A DNA stretch of 64,000 bases from Clostridia bacterium (GTDB taxonomy: Bacteria > Bacillota > Clostridia > TANB77 > CAG-465). Positions 764-54,380 of this stretch are shown here, one piece after another (the first letter of the stretch is position 1; each line of letters begins with the position of its first letter). Location: NCBI GenBank assembly GCA_045536565.1, contig JAZSNU010000013.1, forward strand, positions 64,155 through 128,154. The letters are read 5' to 3'. The position numbers and the translations under genes are program-made. The notes under the pieces are model-generated. The model ran no database searches, was not told the DNA's origin, and saw only the letters and a list, made by a program, of their open reading frames with translations.

Positions 764-2701
764 TTAAAAATTATTTTTCCAAGCCTCGCTATTGAAATTT
801 TTATACCCTTCATCTGCTAACTTCGCATTAGCAGCAGCACTAGGATAAATCCCGATATTATTATTAAAAAATGTTATATATTGATTTGATTCTATCTTTC
901 TAATTCTAACGTATCCATCACCATTGTTTTGAAAATTTACTGTTTCCTCAAAAGAATTATCTAACGGATCTCTCATTTGTTCAGAACCTCTTTGTGCTCT
1001 TGTATCTCTATGCTCTGGTGAAACATCTCCCGGGTTAACCCAAGAATACGAATTACCATCCCACAAATTAATAATATTCTTCCAATGGGCTGTCTTTGTA
1101 TTATATTTCAAATGCTCTATTTGATTTAAATAAGCAGCATATGTTGATTCAACTAAACCCGGTAATGGATATACTGTACTATTATTTGAAAAAGCAAACT
1201 CCGTTTCTGGCCAAAGATATGAAAGTCCTCCGCCGCCACCAGCATTTGGGTCATGTGAAGCACCACCACCATAGTAACCTCCGCCGCCACCACCGGCGCC
1301 ATCTACTGTTGCATTCCCACCTTGTAAAAGGCCGCCTTTTTCAACAGCTGGTACTCCATCATACCCAACAGATATAGTTGCAACCCCAGCGGTAGCTCCA
1401 ATTCCTTCATAACTAGAAGATGCAGGTTTTCCATTTCCGGCACCTCCAAAATTTCCTCCATCTCCGCCATAACCATTATTTGATTTACTACTACACCCGC
1501 CGCCACCACCAGCGACCATTATTCTCGTAAGAAGGGATGCAGTATCCTTTTCGGTTTCTCCCTTTATTAATCTTATGTCTGTGGCTCCTCCGCCACCATA
1601 TCCGCCATATGAATTTCCTCCTCCGTTGTATCCACCATTTTCGGTATTACCAGATGAATATAGAGTACCTTTTCCGCCTATATACAAATATATAGTAGTA
1701 TCTTTATGAACATAATAATGTGTTTTTATATATGCTCCAAAGCAGTAGTTTAGTCGTCTTGTTAGATCATCAGGATTTCCAAAATAATTAGTAGTAGAAG
1801 GATAACCGCCAGATGCTCCCCATAATTCTATTTCATATACATTTCCACCTTCTAATGTAACTTCTTGAACATCGCCAGTATAATAATACACACTTCCTAA
1901 ATCTGTTTTAATATAACCATTATTAATCACACCATCATTGTTTACTGTCCCGCCATATTCAACAAATATTTTAGCTACATCGTCTGATCCAACATTAGCT
2001 GTCAACATATTATATAAAACACCTGCCATAGTTTTATTCGAATTTTTAACAGTAACAATTATTTTGTCACCTTTATTCATAACATATGAATTTTCGTTTT
2101 TATATGCATTAGAAATATATGTATCTATTTCTCCTAATCTACACAATCTCAAAAATTCTAATTTAGTAAGTCCAGTTCCCCTAAAAATTCTTTCTACTAT
2201 TTGTTTATCAGAAATTATCTCTTCATTTATAGCTTGCGCTGTTTCTATAAGCCAAGGCCCTGCATCATTGAAATAATAAATTTCTGTTCCTACGTGTAAT
2301 GCCGAGTCACCATCTAGATAATCATCTATATATTTTTCATAATCTAGAATCATAGAAACTTTCCCTTTTTTGTATGCATTGTTTTCAATTACGTAATTTC
2401 CGCTATTATCTTTAAGCTTTTCATAAATATAAATCACGGGGTCATATCTTTTTTTTACATGTTCTAGCGTGATTTCATACGAATTATTTGTAGCATATAC
2501 TCCTGATACAAATTCATTGTACATATCGGGCGAAATATATCCTTTGTTTGTAGCATTATCAACAAAATTTTGAGTTATTTTTAGTACTAAACTATATGAT
2601 ATGTCATCTATTTTCTCAAATGCAACATATATAGGTACTATAAACAAAACCAAAACACCTACTATAGCTGATATTATTTTTTGTAATGAAGATTCCATCA
2701 A
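764..2701 (-). CDS. Minor pilin/adhesin-like protein with C-terminal glycine-rich domain
   Basis: N-terminal TM segment; ELWGASGG...GGYNGGG...GGGGATDIR...IMVAGGGGG...GGGGGGYYGG matches the ALK/LTK-like Gly-rich domain. Confidence 0.7.
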   Translation of the reverse strand: MMESSLQKIISAIVGVLVLFIVPIYVAFEKIDDISYSLVLKITQNFVDNATNKGYISPDMYNEFVSGVYATNNSYEITLEHVKKRYDPVIYIYEKLKDNSGNYVIENNAYKKGKVSMILDYEKYIDDYLDGDSALHVGTEIYYFNDAGPWLIETAQAINEEIISDKQIVERIFRGTGLTKLEFLRLCRLGEIDTYISNAYKNENSYVMNKGDKIIVTVKNSNKTMAGVLYNMLTANVGSDDVAKIFVEYGGTVNNDGVINNGYIKTDLGSVYYYTGDVQEVTLEGGNVYEIELWGASGGYPSTTNYFGNPDDLTRRLNYCFGAYIKTHYYVHKDTTIYLYIGGKGTLYSSGNTENGGYNGGGNSYGGYGGGGATDIRLIKGETEKDTASLLTRIMVAGGGGGCSSKSNNGYGGDGGNFGGAGNGKPASSSYEGIGATAGVATISVGYDGVPAVEKGGLLQGGNATVDGAGGGGGGYYGGGASHDPNAGGGGGLSYLWPETEFAFSNNSTVYPLPGLVESTYAAYLNQIEHLKYNTKTAHWKNIINLWDGNSYSWVNPGDVSPEHRDTRAQRGSEQMRDPLDNSFEETVNFQNNGDGYVRIRKIESNQYITFFNNNIGIYPSAAANAKLADEGYKNFNSEAWKNNF

Positions 2702-2707
2702 TACCTC

Positions 2708-3127
2708 CTAAAATCTAAAAGTTGCTATTATTTTTTCTTTATTCCCCTCTATCTTTTTTTCTAAATCAAAGAAATAATTTGGTCTTATATTGCTATCACG
2801 AACTATTGTGTTACTTGTTGAATAATAATCTGTATTATCAAATATTAGTTTTTTATCATTAATTTTATCATCAACCGACATGTATACAGTAACAACATCA
2901 TCGTTCCAATAATACTCCATCAGATGTCTAAGATCTCTTCCCGTTATTAGTTCTGATTCAAGTATAGTATCTATATATTTCTTATCCGCATTTGCTATAT
3001 CATGACGATTAGCCATAGTAGCTGTACTTTTTGCTGTATCATAGAAGTTTATAATTAAACTTATAGTTATAATCGAAACAAAAACACTTACCCCTATAAA
3101 TACAGCCCTACTTGCATTTTCATCCAT
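2708..3127 (-). CDS. Tad-locus pilin-like protein
   Basis: ATG 3127 after AAGGTG; MDENASRAVFIGVSVFVSII paralogous to pilins; ITGRDL motif. Confidence 0.7.
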   Translation of the reverse strand: MDENASRAVFIGVSVFVSIITISLIINFYDTAKSTATMANRHDIANADKKYIDTILESELITGRDLRHLMEYYWNDDVVTVYMSVDDKINDKKLIFDNTDYYSTSNTIVRDSNIRPNYFFDLEKKIEGNKEKIIATFRF

Positions 3128-3279
3128 ATTTATCACCTTTTTATACAATTAAATTTTACCATAAAACAGGCTTAAAATATATGTCTCAAAGTATATGTAA
3201 TATAAATATATTTAATTTGTAATATTTTTGTAATCATATACATGAAACACGGATAATTACTAGCTTTTCTAAACATTAT

Positions 3280-3286
3280 TTCGACA
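3280..3286 (-). promoter_or_regulatory. Putative Spo0A box (TGTCGAA)
   Basis: TTCGACA on + strand in the divergent intergenic region upstream of pilin A. Confidence 0.4.
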
Positions 3287-3309
3287 TTATCTTTGATAAA
3301 AAACTTATG

Positions 3310-3552
3310 CGCAAAATATCAATTTTGCAAAAACAACACAGCTGGTTAACACACGAGTTATTTACCGTGTTTAACATATATGTACATATATCTAAACAAA
3401 AGATATATTGAGATAAATCTATAAAAATTAAAGGAGGAAAAGATTATGGATAACGCTCAAAAAGCAATTATGATTGGTGTTGGTTTATTTATAACAATCA
3501 TTATTATTTCAGCAGTACTATTAATAGTTAATCTAGGTACTGATTTAATTGA
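3310..3552 (+). repeat. Left arm of ~250-bp inverted repeat (leader plus pilin 5' end)
   Basis: Reverse complement of ~6005-6255; 3442-3523 is 82/82 identical to 6043-6124, and 3366-3394 is 29/29 identical to 6172-6200. Confidence 0.95.
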
Positions 3553-3967
3553 CGAATCAACTGCAAAACTTGATTCAATAAGTTCATCACTACAAGGGTC
3601 ATTAACAGAAAATTATGATGGTAAAATAATGACTGGATCTCGTGTAATAAATGCAATAAAAGAATATGCAAATGGTGGTGAAGTTTCAATTGTTCTTTAT
3701 AACAAATCGAATGTAGCAGTAGCTTGGACAGGTGCAAAGAAAATTGGAGATTTAGCTGATGTTTCTAAAATAGGTACTACAGATGTTAAGTTAGCTAATG
3801 ATTCAACGGGTTTGACAGATTGGGCTGGTGATAAAACTAATTTAAGTGATTTTTCAAATAATACAAAAGGAGAGGTATATGTAAACCCATCTAAACAATA
3901 CAAAGTATCAGTTGTAAGAACATCTGCTGATGCAGTTGTAGGAATTGTATTCCAACCAGTAGCCTAG
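3446..3967 (+). CDS. Major pilin-like paralog A (opposite strand to tad operon)
   Basis: AAGGAGG RBS; MDNAQKAIMIGVGLFITIIIISAVLL identical to paralog B, C-terminal region divergent. Confidence 0.8.
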   Translation: MDNAQKAIMIGVGLFITIIIISAVLLIVNLGTDLIDESTAKLDSISSSLQGSLTENYDGKIMTGSRVINAIKEYANGGEVSIVLYNKSNVAVAWTGAKKIGDLADVSKIGTTDVKLANDSTGLTDWAGDKTNLSDFSNNTKGEVYVNPSKQYKVSVVRTSADAVVGIVFQPVA

Positions 3968-4017
3968 CTAATTATTATTAAAAGTTAATAGTGGGGTGCG
4001 GATAACTAAAAAGTTAT

Positions 4018-5504
4018 GGCTGTATAATTTAGGTTGGGGTGTGTAAAAACACTTCAACCTTTTTATTGCATAAAAATTGCAATTAAATCATTTTTACCTT
4101 AAAATGTAGTTGATTAGAAAACAAAGAAAGGTTTTGGTGATTTAATTGCGTAAAAATGATATAACAGATTTCTTTAATTTGCAAGAGGTTAAAGTAGATT
4201 TTCATAAATGTTCTAAAAGTTTAATTGAACTTTGGATTAAATGTCCTGTTAAGGAACATATTTGTCCTGTTTGTAATTCTTCTACTTCTCGTATACACGA
4301 CTACTATACTCGTTCTTTTAACCATATTAAAGTTGGTCAAAAAACTACTAGGATATATTACAAGCAGCGCAGATATGTTTGTTTACATTGTGGTAAAAGA
4401 TTTGCTGAGAAGAATACTTTTATACAGAAATTTTACAGGCATTCCAATGATGTTGTTAATACTGTATTTGATCAACTTACTCAGATTCGTAGTCTCTCTC
4501 AGATAGGCTATGATAACAATATGTCTGCTCAAAATGTTTCTAGACTTATGAATAAATTTATGCCTATCTTTCATAATACTACTTCTCTTCCAGAAGCTAT
4601 TGGTATTGATGAATTTAAAGGTAATGCTGGTGGTAACAAATTTCAAGTTTATATTACTAATCTTAAAACTGGTAAAGTTATTGATATTATCTCCGCCAGG
4701 TCAGAAGATGCTTTGTATAATTTCTTTAGAAAAATTTCTAATCCTAAAGATGTTAAATTTGTTGCTATGGATTTATCTCTTTTCTTTAAAAGTATTATTG
4801 CAGACATTTTTCCTAATGCTAAAATTATTGCTGATACTTTTCATTTTACTAGACTTATGCATTGGGCCTTAGATAATGTTAGAAAAGATGTTCAAAAAGG
4901 ATTACCAAAAGATATGCGTATCTACTTTAAACACAGTAGATATGTTCTTCACAAAAGAATTATCGACTTAAATCCTGATCAATATCATCAACTTACTAAT
5001 ATGCTTGATTACAATGAAAATCTTAGATGGGCTTATTCTATTGTTCAAAACTTGTTTGAGATTATTGATGAAAAAAATCCTGGTAAGAAAGTTACTCTTT
5101 TTAAAGAGTTTATGACATATGCTAGCAATTGTGACTTGCCAGAATTTAACAAACATATTCAAACTTACTTTAAATGGCATAAATATATTATCAATTCTTT
5201 TTATACCAACTATTCTAATGGTATTACAGAAGGTTTAAATACTAAGATTAAAACTTTAAAAAGAGTTTCTTTTGGATTTAGAAATTTTCAAAACTTTAGA
5301 TTAAGAATTTTAATGGCTTGTTCTTAAATCTAATATATTAATTTGTTTTAATTAAATTAGCCGTTAGGCTTGCGTTAGCATGCCCAAAAATATATATTTC
5401 AATTACTTTTTAAGTGTATTAACACTGCATACCTAAAAAGTCCATAAAAAGTGAGATGCAGATAACTTTTTAGTTATCCGCACCCCAACTATTGACTTAG
5501 AGTC
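4018..5504 (+). mobile_element. ISL3-family insertion sequence
   Basis: ISL3 transposase; imperfect terminal IRs GGCTGTA...GTTGGGGTG (4018-4041) and CACCCCAAC...TAGAGTC (5481-5504); no clear target duplication. Confidence 0.8.
4146..5327 (+). CDS. ISL3-family transposase
   Basis: Zinc finger CPVC...CLHCG; IGIDEF, AMDLS, ADTFH, SNGITEGLNTKIKTLKRVSFGFRNF motifs. Confidence 0.95.
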   Translation: MRKNDITDFFNLQEVKVDFHKCSKSLIELWIKCPVKEHICPVCNSSTSRIHDYYTRSFNHIKVGQKTTRIYYKQRRYVCLHCGKRFAEKNTFIQKFYRHSNDVVNTVFDQLTQIRSLSQIGYDNNMSAQNVSRLMNKFMPIFHNTTSLPEAIGIDEFKGNAGGNKFQVYITNLKTGKVIDIISARSEDALYNFFRKISNPKDVKFVAMDLSLFFKSIIADIFPNAKIIADTFHFTRLMHWALDNVRKDVQKGLPKDMRIYFKHSRYVLHKRIIDLNPDQYHQLTNMLDYNENLRWAYSIVQNLFEIIDEKNPGKKVTLFKEFMTYASNCDLPEFNKHIQTYFKWHKYIINSFYTNYSNGITEGLNTKIKTLKRVSFGFRNFQNFRLRILMACS

Positions 5505-5541
5505 TAAATTCTGTATATTTTTTAACTTTTGAATTAATATA

Positions 5542-6120
5542 TTATGCTGATGGTAAAACAGTTATATCACTAGTTCCTACAAGATCAGAAGGTATAAATA
5601 TTACTCCAACCATTGCATCACCGTCTACACGAATTACATAAGCATTGTATCTTGCACTAGTATTTACATAAGTAATTCCTGCAAAATTAACATCAGTAAA
5701 TCTAGTCATAGCAATAGTAGCAGCATCATCTGAGTTTGTATAATGATCTGAGCTGATTTCAGCAGTTCCATCAACAGGATCGATTGTTATTTGTATATCA
5801 GCACCATTAGCTTGACCAGCTAAATTTCTAGCACCAACACTTGCAACAGAATTTCCATCATCATTAACTAGAACTATTGATAGGTCTGTTGCTGTCATGT
5901 ATTGTTGTATAGCACCTCTTACTTGTGTTCCTGATACTACTTTAGCATCATAGTTTTGTAATATTTGGTTTTGTAATGATGATGACATTGAACTTAAATT
6001 ACTTGTTGCGTCATCAACTAATCCAGTACCCAAGTTTACTACTAATAGTACTGCTGAAATAATAATGATTGTTATAAATAAACCAACACCAATCATAATT
6101 GCTTTTTGAGCGTTATCCAT
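5542..6120 (-). CDS. Major pilin-like paralog B (in line with tad operon)
   Basis: Follows the TadB/C-like gene; AAGGAGG RBS; same first 26 aa as paralog A. Confidence 0.8.
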   Translation of the reverse strand: MDNAQKAIMIGVGLFITIIIISAVLLVVNLGTGLVDDATSNLSSMSSSLQNQILQNYDAKVVSGTQVRGAIQQYMTATDLSIVLVNDDGNSVASVGARNLAGQANGADIQITIDPVDGTAEISSDHYTNSDDAATIAMTRFTDVNFAGITYVNTSARYNAYVIRVDGDAMVGVIFIPSDLVGTSDITVLPSA

Positions 6121-6255
6121 AATCATTTCCTCCTTTTATTTTATAGATTTCTCTCATATATATCTTTTGTATAGATATATGTACATATATGTTAAACACG
6201 AGATATATTCGTGTATTAACCATTTTGTTTTTTTGTGCAAAAATGCTATTTTGCG
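6005..6255 (-). repeat. Right arm of ~250-bp inverted repeat
   Basis: Reverse complement of ~3310-3552. Confidence 0.95.
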
Positions 6256-6258
6256 TAA

Positions 6259-8319
6259 TTACATTGCACCCATTTGAGTAAAGTATGTTGCCATTTGCAT
6301 TATACTTACTATCATTAGTGGCCCAACGAAATATCCTGCTACAAGAATAATCATAGGTGTAAAACCAATTGCTTTTCCCATTGCAACTTTCTTCTGTATA
6401 ACCCTTTCGTTTGCCTCTTTTCTTTTTTCATAGTAAAAGTTTCTTTCAGTTTCTAATTCATCAAAAGCCTCTCTTACTGGTATTCTCTCAACTGCTGAAA
6501 GTAATCCATCTACTATTCTCTTAAAATCTTTATTTGGTACTCTGTCTTTAAGTTCTTCTAATGCTTCTGATGCTCCTGCTTCATAATTGTTAAGCGCTGT
6601 TGCTATTGCATCTTTAAAAGCATATGAATATCTTTCAAGCCATTCTAATATCGTTTGTACATCAACTCTTTCTATATACATAAGCATAAGAATAATTGAT
6701 TGAAATTGCATTATTTCATTTTCTTTTTCCATTTCTCTCATTTTGTTTCTAACAAACATTATGACATCTGGTACAAAATACGCAATAAATCCAACTCCCA
6801 ATGATATTATTAATTCCCAATATTTCAAGTATATCCCTTGAACTTGTGTTACTTTGTTATATATTCTATCAACTTGTTCCTCTGTTGCACTACCTTCTTT
6901 TGCCTCTATATCAGCCTTAATTTGGTCTTTTGTTATTTTAGAATCTCCTCTATATTCTTCTACATACACCGCATCTTGCTCTGCCATAAGATTTGCCGCT
7001 GCCTCATCTTCTTCTGAAAGCTTACCAAGTTCTAAAAACTCGTCTGCTATTCCAGTAAATACAGCATTAAAATCTATGTGATGCATATTTAGTATAAGTG
7101 TAAGTGAAAATACAAAACCAATTAATGCCGCTGCGACTTTATTTACATAAAACCACTCTAATGTCAAAAATGCGTTTGTGTTTTTTATCATTTCCGTTTT
7201 CTTTTTTCGCTTGGTAGTGTATTCTGCTGGTATTAAACCATCAACTATCTTTCTTACTAGTGGAATAGAATATGCTCTATCTTGCCACTTTTTAGTTGCT
7301 ATCCTATCAAATTTTATTTGATCTGAATCTTCTCTTATTACTCTAAGAGCAAAATAACAAACAAATATTGATATAAGTATAAGTGCTTTTATTATAAAGC
7401 CAAAGCTACTGTTGTAGAAGTTTATAAGTGCTGCAAAATTGCTCTCAGCCCAACTTTGTATAATATTTGTAAAGAATATTGGTGCTACTGCAATTGCTGT
7501 TAAACTTCTAAACATATAATTAATTTTATCTCTTTTTAATATTTCAAGATATACATCATTAACTATATTATTAAGATTCTTTAAATATATTGATGTACCG
7601 TCTACTTTTCTATCTCCTAGTTCCATAGTAAGATACGAAACACCTGCAAATAGTTTTAAAAATCTATTTGGTGCAGTATCATAATATTTTTCTAATTGAA
7701 CTTCTGGATTATCTGCAAGTATTGCCTCTTTTATTCTTTTTACTTGTGGTGTAATTTCTTTATCTTCAAGTTCATCAATAGCATCATTAAAAGCCTCTTC
7801 TATCATTCCATGTTCATGGAATGAGTGTCTTATTTCAGTAAACACTTCTGGTATCTGTCTTAATATCTTATCTGCAACTCCATTAACTCTGTAATTAGTT
7901 ATTACCTCATTAACTAAAAGAACTGCAATAATTACTATAAGTTGCATGTATAAATCGTTCGTAACATTTATAAATATAAATAGTGCTACAAATATAAATA
8001 TTACGGATGAAAGCATTATACTTCCTGTTTTTCTTCTTATTTCATATTCAGTATAATCGTTAACCATTTCAAGTTTCAAACGAACTTTTCTAGTATAGTA
8101 TTTAACAACTGGTATTGATATACATATTATATAAAATGCTTGATATACTCTATCGAATATATCTGAAAAACTAGTTTTTTTCTTTACAACAATCTGATCT
8201 TTTTGGAAAAGAGCACTATTTTTTTTATATTTTTTCTTCATCATATTAAAATATATTAATAATGCTGCCATTCCTACAACAGAGAACGCGACTAAACCAA
8301 TTGCTATATAAACTATCAT
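6259..8319 (-). CDS. Fused TadB/TadC-like pilus platform membrane protein
   Basis: Multi-TM protein with two GspF-like halves (ILRQIPEVFTEIRH..; EIMQFQSIILML..ALEELK); directly downstream of the CpaF ATPase. Confidence 0.75.
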   Translation of the reverse strand: MIVYIAIGLVAFSVVGMAALLIYFNMMKKKYKKNSALFQKDQIVVKKKTSFSDIFDRVYQAFYIICISIPVVKYYTRKVRLKLEMVNDYTEYEIRRKTGSIMLSSVIFIFVALFIFINVTNDLYMQLIVIIAVLLVNEVITNYRVNGVADKILRQIPEVFTEIRHSFHEHGMIEEAFNDAIDELEDKEITPQVKRIKEAILADNPEVQLEKYYDTAPNRFLKLFAGVSYLTMELGDRKVDGTSIYLKNLNNIVNDVYLEILKRDKINYMFRSLTAIAVAPIFFTNIIQSWAESNFAALINFYNSSFGFIIKALILISIFVCYFALRVIREDSDQIKFDRIATKKWQDRAYSIPLVRKIVDGLIPAEYTTKRKKKTEMIKNTNAFLTLEWFYVNKVAAALIGFVFSLTLILNMHHIDFNAVFTGIADEFLELGKLSEEDEAAANLMAEQDAVYVEEYRGDSKITKDQIKADIEAKEGSATEEQVDRIYNKVTQVQGIYLKYWELIISLGVGFIAYFVPDVIMFVRNKMREMEKENEIMQFQSIILMLMYIERVDVQTILEWLERYSYAFKDAIATALNNYEAGASEALEELKDRVPNKDFKRIVDGLLSAVERIPVREAFDELETERNFYYEKRKEANERVIQKKVAMGKAIGFTPMIILVAGYFVGPLMIVSIMQMATYFTQMGAM

Positions 8320-8323
8320 TTAA

Positions 8324-10237
8324 TCACCCCCATGCTGTATCTATGAATTTGTCAAAATCTTTCATGTCTTCTGGTGACATATTCTCTCTCATTGCTTTTA
8401 TATTTTCTTCACTTATTGGATGAACCATTACATATTTTCCATCTCTAAACTCAACTATGTTATGATATTCATAGTTTGCTGTTTGTGTCATATGTCTAAA
8501 ATACTCAGTGGCATTATCCATAAACGCTGTCCATTTATCTTCCATTGTCTTTTTATTTCTATAATTTTCGTTATAATTAAATGTTTTTTCCTTAGGTACA
8601 CATTCAGTTATTCTTTCTATATACCTAGAACCATCTACACCTCTTTTTAAGTGTACATCAAAGTTTATAACATTAACAACTTGCACTTCTGCAACATCTT
8701 CATCATTAAACATTCCTATTTTTAAAAGTGAGTTTCTAAGCGCTGTTATCAAGTTAGGGAAAGTTTTAGCATGGTGAGTAAATAGCGTAAACTTAGATGC
8801 AACCTGTGCCATTTGTATCATCCACGCAGCAACCGGATCAGTTGCAACCTCTCCTAGAATGTTAACACCACCATCTGTCTTTTTCTGAACATCAAGTCCC
8901 ATTTGACCTGTTATTGTTTCAGTCTCTCTTAAAGACAAGATGTTGTTATGTGGATATATTTTTCTTAAATGCAACTCGAATGCTGTTTCTTGTACCCTGA
9001 TTGTTATTGTAGGGTAGATATATTTCATTATTGCCATAAGCAATGTAGTTTTACCACAACCTTGCTCACCAGTTATTGCTGTTACCCTTGCTCCTCTGAT
9101 TAAGAATTTAAGCATTTGTATAACTGGTTCTTTACCTTCGTGTGTTAATAATTGTTCTGTATTAAGTAATGTTGGTGGAGCAAACTTTCTTACGAAGAAT
9201 GCCCAAGATTCAGAAAAGTTTGGTCTTAAAACAACTACACGGGAACCATCTTTCATTTCGTTAATTTTGAAACCAACTGATTCTGAAAGTTGTCCAGGGT
9301 TATTATATTTGTATATGTTCTGACAAACTCTTTTAAGTTCTGACTCTGACCCAAATGATAAGAACGATAAATACATTGCTTTACCTTTATAGAATACCCA
9401 AACTGAATCATAAGACATTGGTATGTTTATCTTTCCAGTAGCATCAAGGTATTCTTCCATATCACCTACTTGATCAAGGAATGACGGAGGTATACCAGAT
9501 ACACCACCAGATACACCATCTATATTTTGGTCTCTAACCTCATCTATAACACTGTATCCTTTATATCCTTGATATACTCTTTGAACAACAATTTCTAATT
9601 TATCATCAAAACTCAGTGTTATGTTTTCCATTTGCTCATTAAATATTTTATCTATTTCTTCTGCTGTTACCACATATGATGGAACATTAGGGTCATACTC
9701 GAATTTAGGAACATCCAGTTCATATTCAGTAACAATTTGAGAAAATGCATTATTCCCATATTTTTTCTTATATTCATGAAGTAATATTTCAAATTTATCT
9801 TGCGCCGTTAGTTTTTCGTAATTATCAAAATTTATTGCGTAATTTATGTTTTTCGAATTTACTTTATAGTTATTTGATAAAAGATCAAACATTAAGGTTT
9901 TAACATACTTTTTATCACTAGAATCTGCATATGCTGCACCTTTTAAAGCCTTTTTAAGCTCATATTTTGTATTTTTTCTTCTTTCAAATTCATCTTCTGA
10001 AAGAGCTAAATCATACAAATTCATTCTTGTTATTTCATCAAATTGATTTTTTATATAATCAGTTAACCCTTGCAAATTATATGCAAGTCTTTCTCTTTCT
10101 ACTTCACTAACCTCTGCCGTTTTCTTTCCACCTTTTGCTAAAGAATATATAGCTAGTACAACAAAAGCAATTATTACAACTATAAGTATAAAGTTTATTA
10201 TAAAAGTTGTTGACACGACATTAGCTCCTCCTTTCAA
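8324..10237 (-). CDS. cpaF: CpaF/TadA-family pilus assembly ATPase
   Basis: Walker A GEQGCGKTT, QETAFEL Asp box, ILGEV Walker B, FTHHA His box; GSRV..RP..FFVRKF. Confidence 0.9.
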   Translation of the reverse strand: MKGGANVVSTTFIINFILIVVIIAFVVLAIYSLAKGGKKTAEVSEVERERLAYNLQGLTDYIKNQFDEITRMNLYDLALSEDEFERRKNTKYELKKALKGAAYADSSDKKYVKTLMFDLLSNNYKVNSKNINYAINFDNYEKLTAQDKFEILLHEYKKKYGNNAFSQIVTEYELDVPKFEYDPNVPSYVVTAEEIDKIFNEQMENITLSFDDKLEIVVQRVYQGYKGYSVIDEVRDQNIDGVSGGVSGIPPSFLDQVGDMEEYLDATGKINIPMSYDSVWVFYKGKAMYLSFLSFGSESELKRVCQNIYKYNNPGQLSESVGFKINEMKDGSRVVVLRPNFSESWAFFVRKFAPPTLLNTEQLLTHEGKEPVIQMLKFLIRGARVTAITGEQGCGKTTLLMAIMKYIYPTITIRVQETAFELHLRKIYPHNNILSLRETETITGQMGLDVQKKTDGGVNILGEVATDPVAAWMIQMAQVASKFTLFTHHAKTFPNLITALRNSLLKIGMFNDEDVAEVQVVNVINFDVHLKRGVDGSRYIERITECVPKEKTFNYNENYRNKKTMEDKWTAFMDNATEYFRHMTQTANYEYHNIVEFRDGKYVMVHPISEENIKAMRENMSPEDMKDFDKFIDTAWG

Positions 10238-10248
10238 TGATATATTGG

Positions 10249-11064
10249 CTATAAATCTCTAATCTTTGATATTTCCATTATTTTCTTAACAATTTTTCTT
10301 ACTTCGCTTATAAAGTAACCATTGTAATCTCTTGCATCTGCTTTCGCATTTTTATAAAAGAAATCAATAGCGGCACCATCGTTACAAGCATCCATAAATA
10401 TATAATTATGCGGAACCGCAAATATTGGTGTTTTTGTTTTATATCTACCTTTTATATTAAACAAATTGCATTTTGATTTATTCTCATAATCACCAATAAC
10501 AATAATTTTGTTTTTATCTTTTATATATTCATTTTTCTCAATTTCTTCAAAAAACTCATCTAATCTTGCAATATCTTGATTAATAGTACATACTAACAAA
10601 TCTGCATCTTCTATTACTTCCCTTACATAATCATTAATAGTTCCTTTTGGCAAATCTACAATTGCAAAATCATAAGCCTCATCTGCTTTTCTAACAATAG
10701 CAGGGAATGTTTCAGATAGAGATACAAATTGTTCTCTTGTTGTTACATTCGTACCATACATAATATCCAATCTTTGCTTTAAAACTGGTTTTGCATAGTT
10801 TCTTATACTTTCAGGTGTTAGTTTGTTGCTATCAACCAATCTAGATAAAGCAGTCATACCTATGTTAGAATTAGAAAATATATTCATATTTTTTAATTGA
10901 TCATAGTCTGTAAAAGAACTCTCAATTTTTCTTGTTTGCCAATGTGCATGTAAAAGTATTGCGTTTATATCTTCTTCCATTCCCATAAGAGTACTTACTG
11001 CTATCGCTGCATGTGTATTTCCTGTCATTCTTGAAACTGGGCTCCAAAACACTATTTTAGGCAT
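10249..11064 (-). CDS. ParA/MinD-like (CpaE/TadZ-like) protein with degenerate P-loop
   Basis: FWSPVSRMTGNT degenerate Walker A; YDFAIVDL; tad context. Confidence 0.7.
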   Translation of the reverse strand: MPKIVFWSPVSRMTGNTHAAIAVSTLMGMEEDINAILLHAHWQTRKIESSFTDYDQLKNMNIFSNSNIGMTALSRLVDSNKLTPESIRNYAKPVLKQRLDIMYGTNVTTREQFVSLSETFPAIVRKADEAYDFAIVDLPKGTINDYVREVIEDADLLVCTINQDIARLDEFFEEIEKNEYIKDKNKIIVIGDYENKSKCNLFNIKGRYKTKTPIFAVPHNYIFMDACNDGAAIDFFYKNAKADARDYNGYFISEVRKIVKKIMEISKIRDL

Positions 11065-11066
11065 AT

Positions 11067-11792
11067 TTATCTATTCCTCCTACTACCGTTTTTTATTTCT
11101 CTTTTCATTTCATTAGATGTTACATCTTTTAAAATATCCGAACTAATTTCTGCAACCAAATTAACAAACATCTTAGTATGCTTCATTATATCAATGATTC
11201 CACTATGTTGTGCCTCTATATCAGCAATTCTATCTTGATCTTCATAATTTAATTCATACATGTTTTCGTTCCATTCAATTGCAAAATTTATTAGTTTATT
11301 TTCATAATAAACTTCACTTGCTCTTGTTATATAATATTTAAATAAAACTTTCGTTAATTCTAACTTCTTATCTAGTGGTTTATATATCATCATTGTTTTA
11401 AGAAGCTCTGAATTTTTAGACATAGAAATATTTGAATATTCTACAAAGAAATATGTTTTACTTATTCCTCTTGCTCTAAAATTTTCATAAGCGACAGGAT
11501 TATCTATATCAAGAAGTATATAATCATATAAAGCTATATTTAACTCTCTTTTGCAAATGTAATTTTCTACATCATGCATATTTTTAAATCCAACTGCAAA
11601 ATCAATAGAATCATATTGGGTAATATACTCTTTTTCCTTAACTGACAAAGAAGGTATTGTGTATTTCATTCTTTCTTCAACAGTTCCATCTATAACTAAA
11701 ACTGTTTTCCCTGTATAATTTATTGCTTTTGCTAGATTTATAACAAAATCCGTTTTATTAACATATCCTGCTAGTGCAATTACTTCTTGCAT
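11067..11792 (-). CDS. Second ParA-like tad accessory protein
   Basis: GYVNKTDFVINLAK..KTVLVIDGT..YDYILLD. Confidence 0.6.
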   Translation of the reverse strand: MQEVIALAGYVNKTDFVINLAKAINYTGKTVLVIDGTVEERMKYTIPSLSVKEKEYITQYDSIDFAVGFKNMHDVENYICKRELNIALYDYILLDIDNPVAYENFRARGISKTYFFVEYSNISMSKNSELLKTMMIYKPLDKKLELTKVLFKYYITRASEVYYENKLINFAIEWNENMYELNYEDQDRIADIEAQHSGIIDIMKHTKMFVNLVAEISSDILKDVTSNEMKREIKNGSRRNR

Positions 11793-11813: not shown

Positions 11814-13001
11814 TTACTGTCCTAATGTTTGATTTCTTAAAGCTTGTTGTGCTGATATTTGACTAGATAATCCAGAAACTGCTGCTTGATATCCATCTCC
11901 ACTTGCAGTAACGAATTCTGCCATGTTTGTTTCTATCTGCATTCTAATATCGGCACTTAATTTAGCCTTTGCTTCCTCTGCAATATATTTATTGTTTTCC
12001 ATATGTCTTCTTATTATATCGCTTGGTTGATATGTTCTTTCAACCACATCATAAGATTCAATATAATATCTATATTCAATTGCATATTTTAATAATAAGT
12101 CAGTTAAATTATTTGTGAAATTAATATACTCTTGTGTTGTTTCTTCTTTTTTATCATCTTTGTTTTCATCAGCAGAATTTTCAGTATTAATATCTGTCTC
12201 AACATCTTCTTCTACTTCACTTGTTACATCTTTTGCAACTTCATCTGGTACTGATAACGCAACTGTTCCATCTGCAACATCTTTTTCTATTTTTTCTACC
12301 AAGTCTCTTTTGGCTATGTCTGTAATACTAACCTGGTTTCCATCTTCGTCAATAATAAAGTCTCCTACTTTTATTTGTGTTGCTGGATCTACATATCTAA
12401 CACCATAAAGTTCCGAAGCACCTTCTGACAGATACACATCGACAATAGCGCTGTTTAAATAGTATAAGTTTTCTTCATCTAAATACAAGTCAATAGCATT
12501 ACCAGTAATTTTTCTAACTTTTATTTGTGGAATTACAATATACTCTAAACCACTTGCCATTTTCATTTTTATATCTATATATTCACCCTCAACTAATCCT
12601 GATGGTAACTTTACAGATGTTACTTCTTGTATTCTTTCATCAACAGTAACAACTTCATCTCCAAACATACTTCCAACCAATGGTATATTTGCTGGTATAT
12701 TATATTTAGCTATTTTGCCTACTGCTCCATACCCAATAAGATTTGTAGGAGATGAACTAATATGAACTCTTGCAGATGTTAACATATCATCTGTAATTGT
12801 TTCACCTTGAATAACATCTCTATTTAGCATTACAACCTCTGTTGTGTAATTTGCTATATATTCTTCATTTGTCCCCTCTTTATATGAATTTACAACACTA
12901 ATTGACCATATAAGAGTTATTGCAATACCGATTATTCCTATACCTGCGCCAATCAATATTCCGTATATTAATCTCTTTCTTATTTGACTCATTCCTATCA
13001 T
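11814..13001 (-). CDS. SAF-domain CpaB/RcpC-like pilus assembly protein
   Basis: ATG 13001 after GGAGG; TM then VVMLNRDVIQGETITDDML..GKIAKYNIPAN (SAF) and LPSGLVEGEYIDI. Confidence 0.8.
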   Translation of the reverse strand: MIGMSQIRKRLIYGILIGAGIGIIGIAITLIWSISVVNSYKEGTNEEYIANYTTEVVMLNRDVIQGETITDDMLTSARVHISSSPTNLIGYGAVGKIAKYNIPANIPLVGSMFGDEVVTVDERIQEVTSVKLPSGLVEGEYIDIKMKMASGLEYIVIPQIKVRKITGNAIDLYLDEENLYYLNSAIVDVYLSEGASELYGVRYVDPATQIKVGDFIIDEDGNQVSITDIAKRDLVEKIEKDVADGTVALSVPDEVAKDVTSEVEEDVETDINTENSADENKDDKKEETTQEYINFTNNLTDLLLKYAIEYRYYIESYDVVERTYQPSDIIRRHMENNKYIAEEAKAKLSADIRMQIETNMAEFVTASGDGYQAAVSGLSSQISAQQALRNQTLGQ

Positions 13002-13029
13002 ATGTACAACCTCCAATAATTCTCTTAAA

Positions 13030-13058
13030 ATAATATCGTATTTAAGTTGTATTTTCAA
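13030..13058 (-). promoter_or_regulatory. Sigma-A-like promoter of tad operon
   Basis: TTGAAA-17-TATTAT on minus strand. Confidence 0.5.
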
Positions 13059-13099
13059 CACATTTTTTTGAAATAACAATGTCTTTAACTAAAATATAA

Positions 13100-22318: not shown

Positions 22319-23159
22319 TTTCTAAAACTTTCCTCATATTTGCTGACGCTTTACTTGCATTTTCTACTACACTATTATGAGTATCAATTTCATTTCCCTT
22401 TGATACATTTGTTATACAAGAAAATGCTAGCACTTTCATATTTGAGTGAGCAGCCACAATTATTTCAGGAACAGTTGACATTGCTCTTGCATCAATTCCT
22501 AATATTCTCATAGCTTTAACTTCCGCATCAGTTTCATATGATGGTCCTGTAAAATATGCAAATACACCTTTATGAATAGCAATATTATTTTCAACCGACT
22601 TATTATATACTGTATCTATTAAATTAGAATCATATATTCCATTTATTGCTGGAAATCTAACTCCGAATTCTTCTAAATTTTCTCCTATAAGAGGATTAAT
22701 TCCAGTAAAATTAACATGATCTTTCAAAATCATTATATCTCCAACATCGTATTCTAAATTAGAAGCACCTGCTGAATTAGTAACAATCATTTTTTTTATC
22801 CCTAGGACACTAAATATTCTTTGTGGCATAGTAATTTCTCTTACATGATATCCTTCATAATAATGAAATCTACCATCCATAACTACTACATCTTTATTAT
22901 TAAATGTTCCGAAAACAAATCTTGATTTATGACCTTTTACAGTAGAAACAGGCATAAAAGGCATATCATTATATGGTATTTCAAAATCAATATTCATATC
23001 ATCTATTACACTAGAAAGGCCAGAACCAAGAACTATTGCTATTTCGTATATGTCTGTTTCAATATTATTTTCTTTGGCAATCTTTTTTATATACATCGCA
23101 TTTTGATTTATCATATTCATATACATATCATTATTCATTAATTCTTTTACATTTATCAT
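22299..23159 (-). CDS. punA: Purine-nucleoside phosphorylase (family 2)
   Basis: IVLGSGL, GRFHYYEG, TNSAG, GPSYET, MSTVPE. Confidence 0.93.
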   Translation of the reverse strand: MINVKELMNNDMYMNMINQNAMYIKKIAKENNIETDIYEIAIVLGSGLSSVIDDMNIDFEIPYNDMPFMPVSTVKGHKSRFVFGTFNNKDVVVMDGRFHYYEGYHVREITMPQRIFSVLGIKKMIVTNSAGASNLEYDVGDIMILKDHVNFTGINPLIGENLEEFGVRFPAINGIYDSNLIDTVYNKSVENNIAIHKGVFAYFTGPSYETDAEVKAMRILGIDARAMSTVPEIIVAAHSNMKVLAFSCITNVSKGNEIDTHNSVVENASKASANMRKVLEIATEVM

Positions 23160-23578
23160 ATATCTTCTCCTAGATTATTTAAACCAAAACCTCTTCTATA
23201 TAGATATTCTTTTTTTTTAATATCCTCATAGTCTTTTAATTTTCCATTTACAAGTTTATCTATTACATCATATTCGTATGACTGAGGTAAGTTATTTTCA
23301 AATTCTAAATCAATTATACTAGTTTTTACACCTTTTTGCAATAGTTTTTGTTTTAGCTCATATTTACTATACTTTAACATCTTAACATTTTGTCTAATAT
23401 ATGATCTAACATAATCTACATCATCAAGATAATCTAATTCATTTAAATACTCTATTACCTTAGATATTGTTAAAGAGTCTACTCCTAGACTCTTTAACTT
23501 TTTATTAACTTCAAATTCTGTTTTTTTTGATATACCTATATATTTAATTGCTTTTTCCTTAGCAACAATATACTCCAT
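23156..23578 (-). CDS. recX: Regulatory protein RecX
   Basis: Downstream of recA; TEFEV..KL..YLDDVDY..LLQKGV..YLYRRGF. Confidence 0.85.
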   Translation of the reverse strand: MEYIVAKEKAIKYIGISKKTEFEVNKKLKSLGVDSLTISKVIEYLNELDYLDDVDYVRSYIRQNVKMLKYSKYELKQKLLQKGVKTSIIDLEFENNLPQSYEYDVIDKLVNGKLKDYEDIKKKEYLYRRGFGLNNLGEDI

Positions 23579-23588
23579 AGCATTTCTC

Positions 23589-24644
23589 CTATTCTTCAAT
23601 ATCTTCTAGTGAATCATCATCTTGTTCTTCCATTTCACCTAAGCTTTTTTCAAAAGCAAGATTGAAATTATCTCTAACCTTCTTTTCAATTTCCTTCATA
23701 ACTTCTGGATTATTTTTCAAATAAGTTTTAGCCGCTTCTCTACCTTGACTAATTTTTTCTCCATTATATGAGAACCAAGCACCCGCTTTATTTACTATAT
23801 CAAGATTTACTGCTAAATCAAGTACGCATCCTTCTGATGAAATACCTTCGCCGTATACTATATCAAATTCTGCTTCTCTAAATGGTGGTGCAACTTTGTT
23901 TTTAACAACTTTAACTTTTGTTCTTGTACCCATAACTTCGCCATTTATTTTTATAGCTTCTTGTTTTCTAACATCTAATCTAACTGATGAATAGAATTTT
24001 AAAGCTCTTCCTCCTGGTGTTGTTTCAGGATTTCCAAACATTATTCCAACTTTTTCTCTCAATTGGTTAATAAATACAGCAACTGTTTTTGATTTAGAAA
24101 GTACACCAGTTAATTTTCTTAAAGCCTGTGACATCAATCTTGCTTGAAGGCCAACATGTGAATCTCCCATTTCACCATCGATTTCTGCTTTTGGAACAAG
24201 TGCTGCAACTGAGTCTACAACAATTATATCAATAGCGCCACTTCTTACAAGTTGTTCTGTTATTTCAAGCGCTTGCTCACCTGTATCTGGTTGAGAAACT
24301 ATTAAATTATCTACATCTACACCTAATTTTTTAGCGTATACCGGGTCTAATGCATGCTCGGCATCAATAAAAGCGGCTACCCCACCTAGTTTTTGTGCTT
24401 CTGCAATCATATGTAATGATACTGTTGTTTTTCCTGACGACTCTGGTCCGAATACTTCAATTACTCTTCCTCTTGGAACTCCACCAATACCTAATGCTAT
24501 ATCCAAACTTAATGCACCAGTAGGAATAGAATCTACATTTACACTTCCTACCTCTCCTAATTTCATTATTGCACCTTTCCCGAAATTCTTTTGAATTTGT
24601 GACATTGCCACATCTAGTGCTTTTTTCTTTTCTTCTGATATCAT
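23589..24644 (-). CDS. recA: Recombinase RecA
   Basis: [33 protein letters not shown]. Confidence 0.99.
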
Positions 24645-35144: not shown

Positions 35145-37679
35145 TTGCTAGAAAAAATATTGAATTTTTTTAAGATAAAAAAACATAACGAATTTATGAC
35201 TAAATTATTTGGAATTATATCAGCAGTGAGCGTACTTTATATTATTGGACTTATATTTGCATTTTTGTTTGGTGATGGAATGATAGGAAATCCTATTTCG
35301 CCATATATATTTGCAATATTAATAGGATGTCCTGCGCTATTTTTTTCTTACCTTGTTAATACCAAATTTGATATAGTCAAAACAGATAAAGGTAAAATCC
35401 GTTGGTTTATGATTACTCTTGTTACAATGGCTACAATAATTGGTTTTATGGTTATAACTTGGATAAATGAATCAATATGGTCAGCATTAAGGTTGCTTCC
35501 AAATTACGATAATGTTAAAAGTGCTTATCCTGGTGTATTTTCACCTGCTATAAAAACAATCTGTCTAGTTATACCATTTGTATGCATATTTAAATTAATA
35601 GATTATTTAACAATGATATTAAGAGAAGAAGATTATACAAAAGGTATTGCTGGTTTTTGTGGACTTTCAGTTTCTAGTTCTTCTGGAAATACAGGGCCTT
35701 TTGCATGTGATACTGTAATTTGTAGGAATCCAAGTACTGCTGAAGAAGTTGTAGTTCCCGAAAAGAAAAGAATGGAAGCAACACTAGTACAAGGTGCTAC
35801 TGGTACTGGTAAAACAGCAACTGTTCTTTTACCTATGAGTGCAAGAGATATTGAAAAGAAATACTTCTTTAGAGAATATTCTAAAAAACTAGCATATAGT
35901 TTACTTAAAAAAGGTGTTGCATATATAGAAGGACCTTTTACTAACGAATATATAAACAGAAATTTCAGACTAGATTTTGTAAAACCAAAAAAAGGATTAG
36001 AAAGAGAATTTTACGATACTCTTGATAAAGTTATTCTTTATAGAGATAAAACAACTGGCGAAGTTGTGTACAGAAACCTTGGTATTACAGTTGTAGAAAA
36101 CGATGGAAGCTATGTTAATAACTTTAAAATGGTGGCTAACAACTATGACTTTGATGTATGTATAATTGACCCAATATCACCAGAAACAACTTTAAGTATA
36201 AACCCATTTGCTATTGAGGATCCTGCAAAATGTGCATCGATTATAGCGGATGTTTTAAAATCAATGCAACAAAGTGAAGGTGGTAAAGAAGAAACATTCT
36301 TCGCACAAGTAACTCTTGATGCATTCCAAAACTTAGCAATACTATTAAAAGAAATGTTCCCTATTCTTCATAATGGCGAAATGCCATCACTAGAAGATAT
36401 GTTAAAATTGTTATATAACTTTGATGCAGTTGAAGAAATGGTAGAAGATATGAAAAAGATACCTGAACTTGAACAAAAATACAAACTTCTTATTTCATAC
36501 TTTGAGAAGAACTTCTACAAACCATCATTAAACATTAATGGATATGAAATACCTGGTACAAGAGGTAGCGGTAGAAAAGATACAGAAAAATTCCTATATG
36601 GTGCTATAACTCAACTTAACAACTTGTTAAGACACCCTGGTTTAAAGAAAGCGCTATGTGGTAAAACAAATGTAATAAACTTCACAGAAGCGATTGAGAG
36701 TGGTAAATTAATTACTGCATGTTCTAGAAAAGGTGAACTTGGTATTATACAATCTAAGGCGTTTGGTATGTTCTTTATATTACAATTCCAAGATGCAGTA
36801 TTAAGAAGAAAAGGAAATGAAGATTCTCGTATTCCTCACTTCTTATACATAGATGAGTTCCCTGAATACATAAACAAAGAAATGGATGTAATGTTTACAC
36901 TATTTAGAAAATATAGATGTGGTGTTACAATCGCTATTCAAAACTTATCACAACTTGATAAAAACAACACTTCATATTACAGACAAACTGTTCTTGCCAA
37001 CACAAAAACTCAAATAGTATTCGGCGATACAGTTCCAGAAGATAGTGACTATTGGAATAAAGCTTTCGGACAAGAAAAGAAAGTTGATAAAGACTCATCA
37101 TTCGATCCTTCATCTGGTGATGTTAAGAGAAAAATGACTATCAAGGTTAAGGATAAAGAAAGATTTAAAGTTCATAAAATACAAGAAAACAAATTTGGTA
37201 GTATATATTATAAAACAAAAAATTCAAAAGGAAATTCAGTATTTGGTGAAGGTAAAGTTTCTTTCTTGGACGATAAATACAAGCAAAAACATCCAGCATA
37301 TGAATACAACTTTGAAAAATTTATGGTAGTAAAACCAATTGATTCAGATTTTAAAACACCTAGTGATATTAACGATAATAACGGACCAGTAATTGAAGAT
37401 GATGATAGTTATATTTTTGGAACAAATATAGCTGTAAATGCCAAAAAAGAAAATAATAATACATCAAATAGTTCTGAAAAAGAAAGTCCTAAATTAATAA
37501 CTGAATTTAATTTTGATGATACTAGCGACTTCGACATTGTAATAGATACTGGTACTAATCCAGAGGGACCAACATTAGAAAACTCTAATTTAGATGGCGG
37601 ACCTATAACAGAGGCTTACGAGCCACCAGTAATTGATATTATAAACGATGATGATACTGGTATGGAAGATGATAAATAA
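35145..37679 (+). CDS. VirD4/TraD-like type IV coupling ATPase
   Basis: N-terminal TMs; Walker A GATGTGKT; FLYIDEF; RKYRCGVTIAIQNLSQL; acidic tail. Confidence 0.88.
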   Translation: MLEKILNFFKIKKHNEFMTKLFGIISAVSVLYIIGLIFAFLFGDGMIGNPISPYIFAILIGCPALFFSYLVNTKFDIVKTDKGKIRWFMITLVTMATIIGFMVITWINESIWSALRLLPNYDNVKSAYPGVFSPAIKTICLVIPFVCIFKLIDYLTMILREEDYTKGIAGFCGLSVSSSSGNTGPFACDTVICRNPSTAEEVVVPEKKRMEATLVQGATGTGKTATVLLPMSARDIEKKYFFREYSKKLAYSLLKKGVAYIEGPFTNEYINRNFRLDFVKPKKGLEREFYDTLDKVILYRDKTTGEVVYRNLGITVVENDGSYVNNFKMVANNYDFDVCIIDPISPETTLSINPFAIEDPAKCASIIADVLKSMQQSEGGKEETFFAQVTLDAFQNLAILLKEMFPILHNGEMPSLEDMLKLLYNFDAVEEMVEDMKKIPELEQKYKLLISYFEKNFYKPSLNINGYEIPGTRGSGRKDTEKFLYGAITQLNNLLRHPGLKKALCGKTNVINFTEAIESGKLITACSRKGELGIIQSKAFGMFFILQFQDAVLRRKGNEDSRIPHFLYIDEFPEYINKEMDVMFTLFRKYRCGVTIAIQNLSQLDKNNTSYYRQTVLANTKTQIVFGDTVPEDSDYWNKAFGQEKKVDKDSSFDPSSGDVKRKMTIKVKDKERFKVHKIQENKFGSIYYKTKNSKGNSVFGEGKVSFLDDKYKQKHPAYEYNFEKFMVVKPIDSDFKTPSDINDNNGPVIEDDDSYIFGTNIAVNAKKENNNTSNSSEKESPKLITEFNFDDTSDFDIVIDTGTNPEGPTLENSNLDGGPITEAYEPPVIDIINDDDTGMEDDK

Positions 37680-53654: not shown

Positions 53655-54380
53655 CTAACTCAGTACTCCTTGCCCAATACTATATACTAATGTAATTACT
53701 TTGAATGTACAATACACTAAAACTATTCCTAACGCTACCGGAACTAATTGTTTTTTTACATCCGCTCTTGTTTCAGCAGGTGATAACATATATTTTAACC
53801 CTAGTAGAACTATACCCAAAATAGCGCATACATTTGCTATTGTGTTTACAGTCGAATACACATTACCGGCAAATGTATTATAGCTAGTTCCTCCACCTAA
53901 TGCTCCAGTCATAAAACTCTTAGATAAATCTCTTACAGATTGTGCTAAATAGAAAAACACAACACCTAGCACATAGTTAGGCAAACTTGATTTTATATCC
54001 GCCTTCCCCTCAATACCAGAATATATATACTTTAAACCTAGCGCAATGGTAACAACGAATATAACTACATTTCCGATTGCAAATATAGTACCAATTATAT
54101 CTAAACCACCTGTACCATTACTTATTATACCTGATAATGCTGCACCAACAGGTTTTTGTAATTCCTTTTGGCAATATTGACATTTATGATTACTAACAGG
54201 ATTTAGTTGATTACATTCTTTACACTCAACATACTTTCCGATACTCGGATCTGTAACATCAACAAAATCGCTTGCTTGGCCAAAAACATCGTTCAAAAAA
54301 CTAGAAGCATACAAATCGCTACTAAAAACTGTAAGTAATACATATATAGCAACTATTATAATCCCTTTTTTCATATTCAA
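53655..54380 (-). CDS. Tandem two-domain TrbC/VirB2-like pilin with zinc ribbon
   Basis: Two GLKY..E.KAD.K units; CKEC..CQYC. Confidence 0.75.
   Translation of the reverse strand: MNMKKGIIIVAIYVLLTVFSSDLYASSFLNDVFGQASDFVDVTDPSIGKYVECKECNQLNPVSNHKCQYCQKELQKPVGAALSGIISNGTGGLDIIGTIFAIGNVVIFVVTIALGLKYIYSGIEGKADIKSSLPNYVLGVVFFYLAQSVRDLSKSFMTGALGGGTSYNTFAGNVYSTVNTIANVCAILGIVLLGLKYMLSPAETRADVKKQLVPVALGIVLVYCTFKVITLVYSIGQGVLS

Follow-up and report, generated by a model that had tools for sequence, protein, structure and literature searches.

Do two pilin genes that face each other across a shared inverted repeat form a genetic switch, or are they a standing pair whose beginnings are kept alike? The question is raised by a 64,000-nucleotide (nt) stretch of a Clostridia bacterium genome of the CAG-465 lineage (contig JAZSNU010000013.1, positions 64,155 to 128,154; hereafter the window), in which two pilin-like genes, pilA and pilB, converge at the end of an operon that distantly resembles those for Tad pili (Table 1). 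An earlier note, made from the sequence alone, proposed an invertible switch in which recombination between the shared 5′ ends exchanges the exposed pilin domains. On balance, we think it probable that pilA and pilB are inverted paralogs of a major pilin gene, both complete, whose 5′ thirds evolve in concert by gene conversion; that inversions of the segment between them are occasional and of little consequence; and that the ISL3-family insertion sequence (IS) lying between them is a recent passenger.

Two complete genes with matching 5′ ends

The geometry described in the earlier note held up on inspection. The two open reading frames (ORFs) are convergent, tail to tail, and the two 82-bp blocks at their starts are exact reverse complements, the sole exact inverted repeat of at least 30 bp in the window. 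In both ORFs the block comprises the 4 nt before the ATG and codons 1 to 26, every synonymous site included; identity between pilA and pilB then drops to about 60% over codons 27 to 80, the abrupt divergence that had been claimed. The wider similarity proved to be longer than first described: it spans 3310-3666 and 5900-6255, giving arms of about 350 bp around the perfect block, and came out as four separate segments (243 nt at 78%, 50 nt at 92%, 47 nt at 79%, and 18 nt at 94%). In their upstream parts, the arm next to pilA (distal to the operon) and the arm next to pilB (proximal) match at 113 of 139 aligned positions. The window as a whole is AT-rich, with 28.6% G+C. Crossover in this block would, as the note had also pointed out, exchange the variable domains in frame; the inverted segment would be 3524-6042.

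The arms hold more than coding sequence. Each carries the full upstream region of 132 to 136 nt, a ribosome-binding site, and the start codon; in the distal arm, the upstream region contains a small palindrome (3311-3328), a hairpin, a second palindrome, ACATATATGTACATATAT (3374-3391), and the ribosome-binding site AAAGGAGG. Because each arm has its own intergenic region, ribosome-binding site, and start codon, both pilins are complete genes and not an expressed gene with a silent cassette. We place the pilB start at 6120. An in-frame ATG further upstream, at 6126, is too near the ribosome-binding site, and the full-length homologs that were fetched all begin with MDN, one of them (P0036) starting later. 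What lies beyond the arms is not symmetrical, with about 7 kb of operon genes upstream of pilB and none upstream of pilA.

The two proteins are 46% identical (E value, 5e-40). Their assignment as pilins rests on a short polar N terminus followed by a hydrophobic helix, a combination common to six ORFs of the locus, on a predicted helix at residues 3 to 57 with a beta-rich domain after it, and on gene context. The structural prediction comes from an AlphaFold2 model of PilB with a mean predicted local distance difference test score of 80.4. Neither protein matched a family in Pfam or NCBIfam, and thus neither matched the Flp family of pilins (PF04964); the G/XXXXEY-type motif of Flp pilins is likewise missing from both. 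When the PilB model was compared with the PDB by Foldseek, there were no matches at an E value of 0.001 or better, an archaeal flagellum chain at rank 12 being not significant (E value, 1.5). A profile of 27 pilins searched against PDB sequences (E values up to 1) returned only a capsid protein, at 0.59, and a search of the ESM Atlas returned only unnamed Bacillota clusters. It seems reasonable to speak of pilins, and of a Tad-like system, as long as both are understood as distant assignments made from models and gene neighborhood. Homologs are numerous, with 797 at an E value of 1e-3 or better, the closest outside this genome being 54 to 57% identical among the matches listed, where PilA is entry P0056. 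Each pilin of the window is a cluster of one member from one contig. In the 120 homologs that were listed, no Pfam domain was found (0/120), and their only source name is "hypothetical protein."

How the arms came to be alike

A scan of one genome per species (GTDB representatives, which do not include the species of the window) yielded 70 related loci, the best of them 51% identical in the pilin, and a motif search of both strands found pilin ORFs in 67. It is common in this family to have several major pilin copies: at least two motif-bearing ORFs were present in 13 of the 70 loci; they are in tandem in 12 and inverted in one, L001. On its 183-kb contig, L001 has the order operon, pilin (+), a minor-pilin-like ORF of 142 amino acids (aa), pilin (−), and minor pilins, with no IS. 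Its arms are 95% identical over 352 nt and include a perfect block made of 131 nt of upstream sequence plus 47 codons. Two more loci, L067 and L068, are contigs of one further assembly. L068 represents the operon side (80.5% identical to window positions 14506-6014) and L067 the minor-pilin side; both stop within a pilin 5′ region, with a single mismatch between their last 189 nt. As judged from sequence, these contig ends imply the same inverted layout in a third species.

Identity at the start of the genes could have a simple cause, as residues 1 to 26 are near invariant across the whole family. Much of the 5′ DNA identity is indeed protein constraint in an AT-biased genome, but not all of it. 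Twelve genes from other genomes encode the same residues 1 to 26 and differ from the window at 1, 1, 1, 1, 6, 6, 10, 10, 11, 12, 12, and 13 of 78 nt, so codon bias does not dictate the identity at synonymous sites. In all three genomes with an inverted pair, the two copies are identical over codons 1 to 26; between genomes there is one substitution, each genome having a shared change of its own. When the window and L067/L068 were compared over −144 to +105, the arms grouped by genome at 16 informative sites and by position at 1, and 4 sites were crossed. Both arms thus carry the same species-specific changes in three species, and we therefore infer gene conversion between the arms as the mechanism behind their identity. 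The arms do recombine, as the model in the earlier note needs.

The extent of the arms is informative as well. All six, from three species, start at the same outer boundary, CGCAAAAT, just past the stop codon of the upstream gene. The perfect tract measures 82 bp in the window, 272 bp in L001, and more than 141 bp in L067/L068, with its inner end at codon 26, at codon 47, and past codon 35, respectively. An inner end that varies between species fits gene conversion tracts better than a fixed crossover site.

Beyond the arms, the genes sort by position. The variable domain of PilB is closest to that of the proximal copy in L001 (58 of 145 residues identical, the best of the pairs). A quick tree was built from 119 rows: the distal copy of L001 and 118 of the 120 proteins fetched, the other two having been left out for lack of an initial MDN or for a length under 150 aa. 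It places PilA with the L001 distal copy in a clade of 19 rows (Shimodaira-Hasegawa-like approximate likelihood ratio test [SH-aLRT] support, 81), inside a clade of 63 rows with support of 97. The variable domains are old paralogs. Independent duplication in each species was considered and rejected, given the boundary common to all arms and the age of these domains.

On the reading that we favor, an ancestor would have duplicated the major pilin gene in inverted orientation, and the copy would have taken along the leader, the ribosome-binding site, and all of the intergenic region upstream. The outcome would have been two complete convergent pilin genes, a B-type gene adjoining the assembly operon and an A-type gene facing it. 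Their variable surface domains would then have diverged into separate paralog lineages, and their 5′ parts would have been made identical again and again by conversion between the arms, with strong purifying selection on the N-terminal helix acting in addition. In this genome, the ISL3 element would have entered the gap between the 3′ ends later. The middle can be inverted by crossover between the arms, and this probably happens from time to time. As for function, the arrangement likely serves to retain two major pilins, alternative or co-assembled, while avoiding the deletions to which tandem repeats are prone.

The IS, which had been overlooked in the earlier note, takes up about 1.5 kb of the 2.5 kb that separates the identical blocks. 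Its transposase matches NF033550 at 7e-88, with 295 bits against a cutoff of 180. The terminal repeats mark a single occurrence, and one IS copy, in the window; no copies were found in the 70 related loci (blastn and tblastn) or in the plasmid collection. ISL3 elements duplicate 8 bp of target on insertion; by eye, no 8-bp target duplication was seen at the ends of this one, and the 8-nt flanks are not direct repeats. The flanks extend the inverted symmetry, at 11 of 12 nt by eye, so that either the true ends of the IS are uncertain or the element lies in a palindromic site. Two terminator-like hairpins were found in 2600-6500, both inside the IS ends and facing incoming pilin transcripts, at 4031-4060 (+) and 5487-5452 (−). 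An Rfam scan of 2600-6600 gave one match, below threshold (E value, 0.9) and within the IS.

Other loci have other contents at this place. Each of the two L001 pilin genes has the same terminator-like hairpin after it (50 nt, 98% complementary; L001 10565-10614 and 11229-11278). The hairpin pair forms an inner inverted repeat around the 142-aa minor-pilin-like ORF (L001 10693-11121), which has no counterpart in the window. L003, with a single pilin gene, has an NAD-kinase-like gene (L003 10760-11575) in the place taken by the second pilin in the window and in L001. It seems that varied insertions are tolerated in the gap 3′ of the major pilin gene.

The question of a switch

The layout shows no sign of a dedicated, frequent switch. 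At thresholds of E 0.01, 1e-5, and 1e-3, tyrosine, serine, and Piv/IS110-like recombinase families were found in none of the 61 window ORFs of at least 100 aa and in none of 16 neighboring ORFs from L001, L003, and L067, in agreement with the earlier remark that no invertase is adjacent. The only transposase-type genes of the window are that of the ISL3 element and one for a PD-(D/E)XK family protein (56169-57050). In the two genomes in which the pair is resolved, the window and L001, the orientation is the same, with the B-type copy next to the operon. Because both upstream regions are complete, and are identical at 131 of 131 positions in L001, a flip would have little effect unless transcription comes mainly by read-through from the operon. 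We infer that both copies are expressed and that the rate of inversion is low. A phase-variation switch is not demonstrated by these comparisons; homologous inversion is geometrically possible.

Several observations weigh against a pair maintained by conversion with few inversions. No promoter could be placed in the arms, so the distal copy may be weakly expressed, in which case a flip would matter; the consensus promoter scan of 2600-6500 found 28 sites against 26 expected and is uninformative in DNA of 28.6% G+C. The inverted pairs are more fully homogenized than the tandem ones, with no differences in the first 78 nt in 3 of 3 pairs, against 1 of 17 tandem comparisons (that one truncated), and this could reflect frequent exchange specific to inverted repeats. 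From −126 to −78, moreover, the arms are crossed between species: the window distal arm matches the proximal arm of L068 at 35 of 43 positions and the window proximal arm matches the distal arm of L067 at 35 of 42, compared with 29 of 43 and 33 of 43 for the same-position pairs. A swap of this kind is beyond conversion acting alone. The simplest account is that at least one inversion took place in the past, and the segment, with its 5 informative sites, hints at one or two. Finally, loci with intraspecies inversions are described as enriched for repeats of at least 44 bp, for a distance between coding sequences of at most 2588 bp, and for tail-to-tail genes with repeats near their 5′ ends (PMC9881135). 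The window locus shows all three features. "Pilin" and "CpaF family protein" are among the enriched annotations in that study, "Pilin" as a target (PMC9881135).

What kind of inversion might these points reflect? RecA-dependent crossovers in the 5′ block might flip the middle often enough to yield subpopulations, bringing an A-type or a B-type domain to the operon-coupled, highly expressed site and so producing antigenic or adhesive variation, which is the model of the earlier note; we consider this unlikely, though it is the alternative that we take most seriously. It would draw on the in-frame geometry, the perfect blocks of the three genomes (82, 272, and more than 141 bp), an architecture kept in three species with all three inverted pairs perfectly homogenized, the crossed segment, the presence of recA within the window (23589-24644), and the attributes shared with inversion-prone loci as these are described in PMC9881135. 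It has to contend with the complete 5′ region of both copies, which leaves only far-upstream input to change, and with the proximal position of the B-type copy in both resolved genomes, a weak point with two cases. A length of 82 bp is also near the lower limit for efficient RecA recombination, which we count against frequent flipping. Somewhat more doubtful again is a recombinase-free, self-maintaining flip-flop, in which homologous crossovers at population-relevant rates would alternate the operon-coupled pilin domain in an undescribed Tad-like pilus of uncultured gut Clostridia. The crossed segment would then be the footprint of a flip, and the inverted layout would have been selected as reversible variation rather than deletion.

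One can also envision a site-specific recombinase encoded in trans that acts on a short site in the arms and flips the whole two-gene unit. The candidate site would be the palindrome GCAAAAT-N(3-5)-(A)TTTTGC, which is present at the outer boundary of each of the six arms from three species and occurs in the window only at the two arms (3 matches against 0.03 expected). A single crossover at the outer edge would explain the crossed segment from −126 to −78, and some invertible regions have no recombinase gene nearby, according to PMC9881135. Set against this are the lack of a recombinase gene in the 64 kb and beside the loci of relatives, a palindrome that is short and AT-rich and could equally be a remnant of a terminator or operator, the slight effect to be expected from flipping two complete genes, and a case made from 5 informative sites; we judge this explanation improbable. 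The two remaining ones seem to us very improbable. The earlier note had itself raised the case of paralogs that are really in tandem, one of them placed in reverse by the assembler. Metagenome assemblers do break or misjoin at repeats, and 6 of the 70 related loci break off within a pilin gene (L046, L055, L067, L068, L069, and L070). An artifact was nonetheless not borne out: the inverted layout and the arm boundary recur in L001, which belongs to another species and was assembled independently, L067 and L068 join an arm to each of the same two flanks, and in the window the perfect block is only 82 bp long, the arms differing at many upstream sites that are directly joined to unique flanks. 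It is just as hard to credit the ISL3 element with the inversion, through intramolecular transposition or recombination between IS copies. The element does lie inside the inverted segment, with no recognized 8-bp target duplication, but there is a single copy in the window, L001 has an inverted pair without an IS, none of the 70 related loci has this IS, and the arm boundaries are common to several species.

Inverted paralogs that evolve in concert, as we propose for pilA and pilB, have a precedent in tufA and tufB of Salmonella, which undergo gene conversion and occasional inversion. The pilin pair resembles them in consisting of two full inverted genes, in that copies within a genome are more alike than orthologs, and in a RecA-type exchange without a dedicated enzyme. 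It differs in that only the 5′ third is homogenized, the rest being divergent surface domains, and in that the genes lie 1 to 2.5 kb apart rather than far apart on the chromosome. In Moraxella bovis and M. lacunata, the Q/I pilin inversion is carried out by Piv, with one promoter and 5′ constant region, two promoterless 3′ cassettes, and an adjacent invertase gene. In common with that system, we see a type IV-type pilin, a junction where the conserved N terminus is encoded, alternative variable parts on a segment of about 2 kb, and an in-frame exchange. Unlike it, this locus has two complete genes, no invertase gene, and a long repeat (82 to 272 bp perfect) whose inner end is variable.

The comparison with shufflons made in the earlier note stands in part. 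Inverted repeats in the target coding sequences, a short distance between these, and a pilus protein as the target are all shared with shufflons and other programmed inversions as treated in PMC9881135. In such systems, that study reports, one of the two coding sequences is typically missing the stretch between the transcription start and the first repeat, and recombinase genes are enriched in the vicinity (PMC9881135). At the gene level, the window has neither a truncated coding sequence nor an adjacent recombinase, and hence not the asymmetry of a single expressed 5′ end; the operon-based measure described there could, however, score it as asymmetric, given the different upstream neighborhoods of pilB and pilA (PMC9881135). 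Our literature search, which did not extend to the supplement of PMC9881135, where similar loci are possibly listed, found nothing on inversion of Tad/Flp pilins in Firmicutes or on concerted evolution of inverted pilins.

The surrounding locus and its meaning

Table 1. Positions of the arms, the genes of the pilin locus, and other features of the window
Feature	Position	Strand	Remarks
Perfect-identity block, arm 1	3442-3523		4 nt of 5′ untranslated region plus codons 1-26
Perfect-identity block, arm 2	6043-6124		Reverse complement of arm 1
Distal arm, noncoding, upstream of pilA	3310-3445	+	Copy of the whole intergenic region preceding pilB
Proximal arm, intergenic	6121-6255	−	Between the gene for the 686-aa membrane protein (ORF end 6259) and pilB
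pilA, distal A-type pilin-like gene, 173 aa	3446-3967	+	Direction opposite to operon; no Pfam/NCBIfam family
pilB, operon-proximal B-type pilin-like gene, 192 aa	5542-6120	−	Last gene of the minus-strand run
ISL3-family IS between pilin 3′ ends	3992-5487	+	Perfect 26-bp terminal inverted repeats, 3992-4017 / 5462-5487
ISL3 transposase, 393 aa	4146-5327	+	PF01610, 7.7e-66; PF14690 (N-terminal zinc ribbon), 8.9e-11
686-aa polytopic membrane protein	6259-8319	−	Possible TadB/TadC-like platform protein; no Pfam/NCBIfam family
Secretion ATPase, distant CpaF/TadA relative	8324-10237	−	Best PDB sequence matches CpaF, E 1.2e-8, residues 281-550
271-aa protein	10249-11064	−	No family match
Weakly ParA/MinD-like protein	11067-11792	−	CbiA, 3.2e-3, below cutoff
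SAF-domain protein, CpaB/RcpC position	11814-13079	−	SAF, 1e-3, below cutoff
ORFs with pilin-type N terminus beyond pilA	2708-3148, 343-711, 3-317	−	N termini from ORF translations
645-aa protein, pilin-type N terminus plus ALK/LTK glycine-rich domain	764-2701	−	PF12810, 2e-35
Coupling-protein-like ATPase	35145-37679		
1280-aa lysozyme plus M23 peptidase	42346-46188		
TraG/VirB4-like ATPase	49830-51812		
Two TrbC/VirB2-like pilins	53655-54380, 54948-55307		

The description of the region as a Tad locus also needs qualifying: the likeness is distant, there is no Flp family, and the family matches fall below curated cutoffs. In the case of the ATPase, TIGR03819 was matched at 2.1e-7 (30.5 bits against 373) and PF00437 at 1.5e-3 (17.7 against 24.9). 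Like Tad/Flp loci, the window combines an ATPase distantly related to CpaF, a SAF protein, a weakly ParA-like protein, and a large membrane protein with a set of pilin-like genes, both major and minor; in contrast to them, it gave no Flp match, no T2SSF domain detected in the membrane protein, and no prepilin peptidase in the visible part of the locus. Among named ESM Atlas clusters, the one nearest to the 686-aa membrane protein is "Flp pilus assembly protein TadB" (score, 0.87), which we take only as a lead; T2SSF is carried by 26% of the members of that cluster and was not detected in the 686-aa protein itself. A prepilin peptidase (TadV/CpaA) was not found among the window ORFs scanned, the operon running past the start of the window, and the downstream ORFs of L067 and L001 had no Pfam match.

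Downstream of the minor pilins, a protein with the ALK/LTK domain is encoded in L001 (12609-17102) and L067 (7473-9272; PF12810 at 2.4e-42) as well as in the window. It has 1497 aa in L001 and 599 aa in L067, compared with 645 aa here, and could act as an adhesin associated with the pilus.

Directly upstream of the major pilin gene there is a hairpin, at 3336-3370 and 6195-6230 in the window, followed by TTTAAC/T-ATATA; it is found in most of the 67 related loci. By eye, the core of its stem varies by species yet stays complementary (CACG/CGTG, CATC/GATG, CGGTA/TACCG, GTACC/GGTAC, and CTTC/GAAG). RNAalifold, applied to 33 upstream regions, gave no consensus structure, the loops being misaligned in the automatic alignment, so this covariation is by eye only. 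The hairpin may serve as a stabilizer of the mRNA 5′ end, a processing site, or an operator.

Elsewhere in the window, recA and recX lie at 23156-24644, about 17 kb from the pilin pair, and the enzyme for homologous inversion or conversion is thus encoded here. A block of conjugation-type genes at 35145-58808, which includes TraX, SSB, and the PD-(D/E)XK family protein, is probably an integrated conjugative element. Inside the PD-(D/E)XK ORF, there is a short tandem direct repeat at 56889-56935 (35-nt copies, 12-nt offset).

These observations bear on a pilin family that is widespread, large, and unannotated. Contig ends inside pilin genes, as in the six loci named above, are the usual mark of repeats that an assembler could not resolve, and the copy number and orientation of pilin genes are probably under-reported in metagenome-assembled genomes; inverted pilin repeats explain why assemblies of these genomes tend to break at pilin genes. 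If the segment does flip often, the locus would provide antigenic or adhesive variation of a pilus in gut Clostridia without a dedicated invertase. If flips are rare, as we favor, it would be a clear small example of concerted evolution, in which the 5′ third that encodes the helix stays identical and the exposed domains diverge, with the inverted orientation protecting the pair from the deletions that threaten tandem copies.

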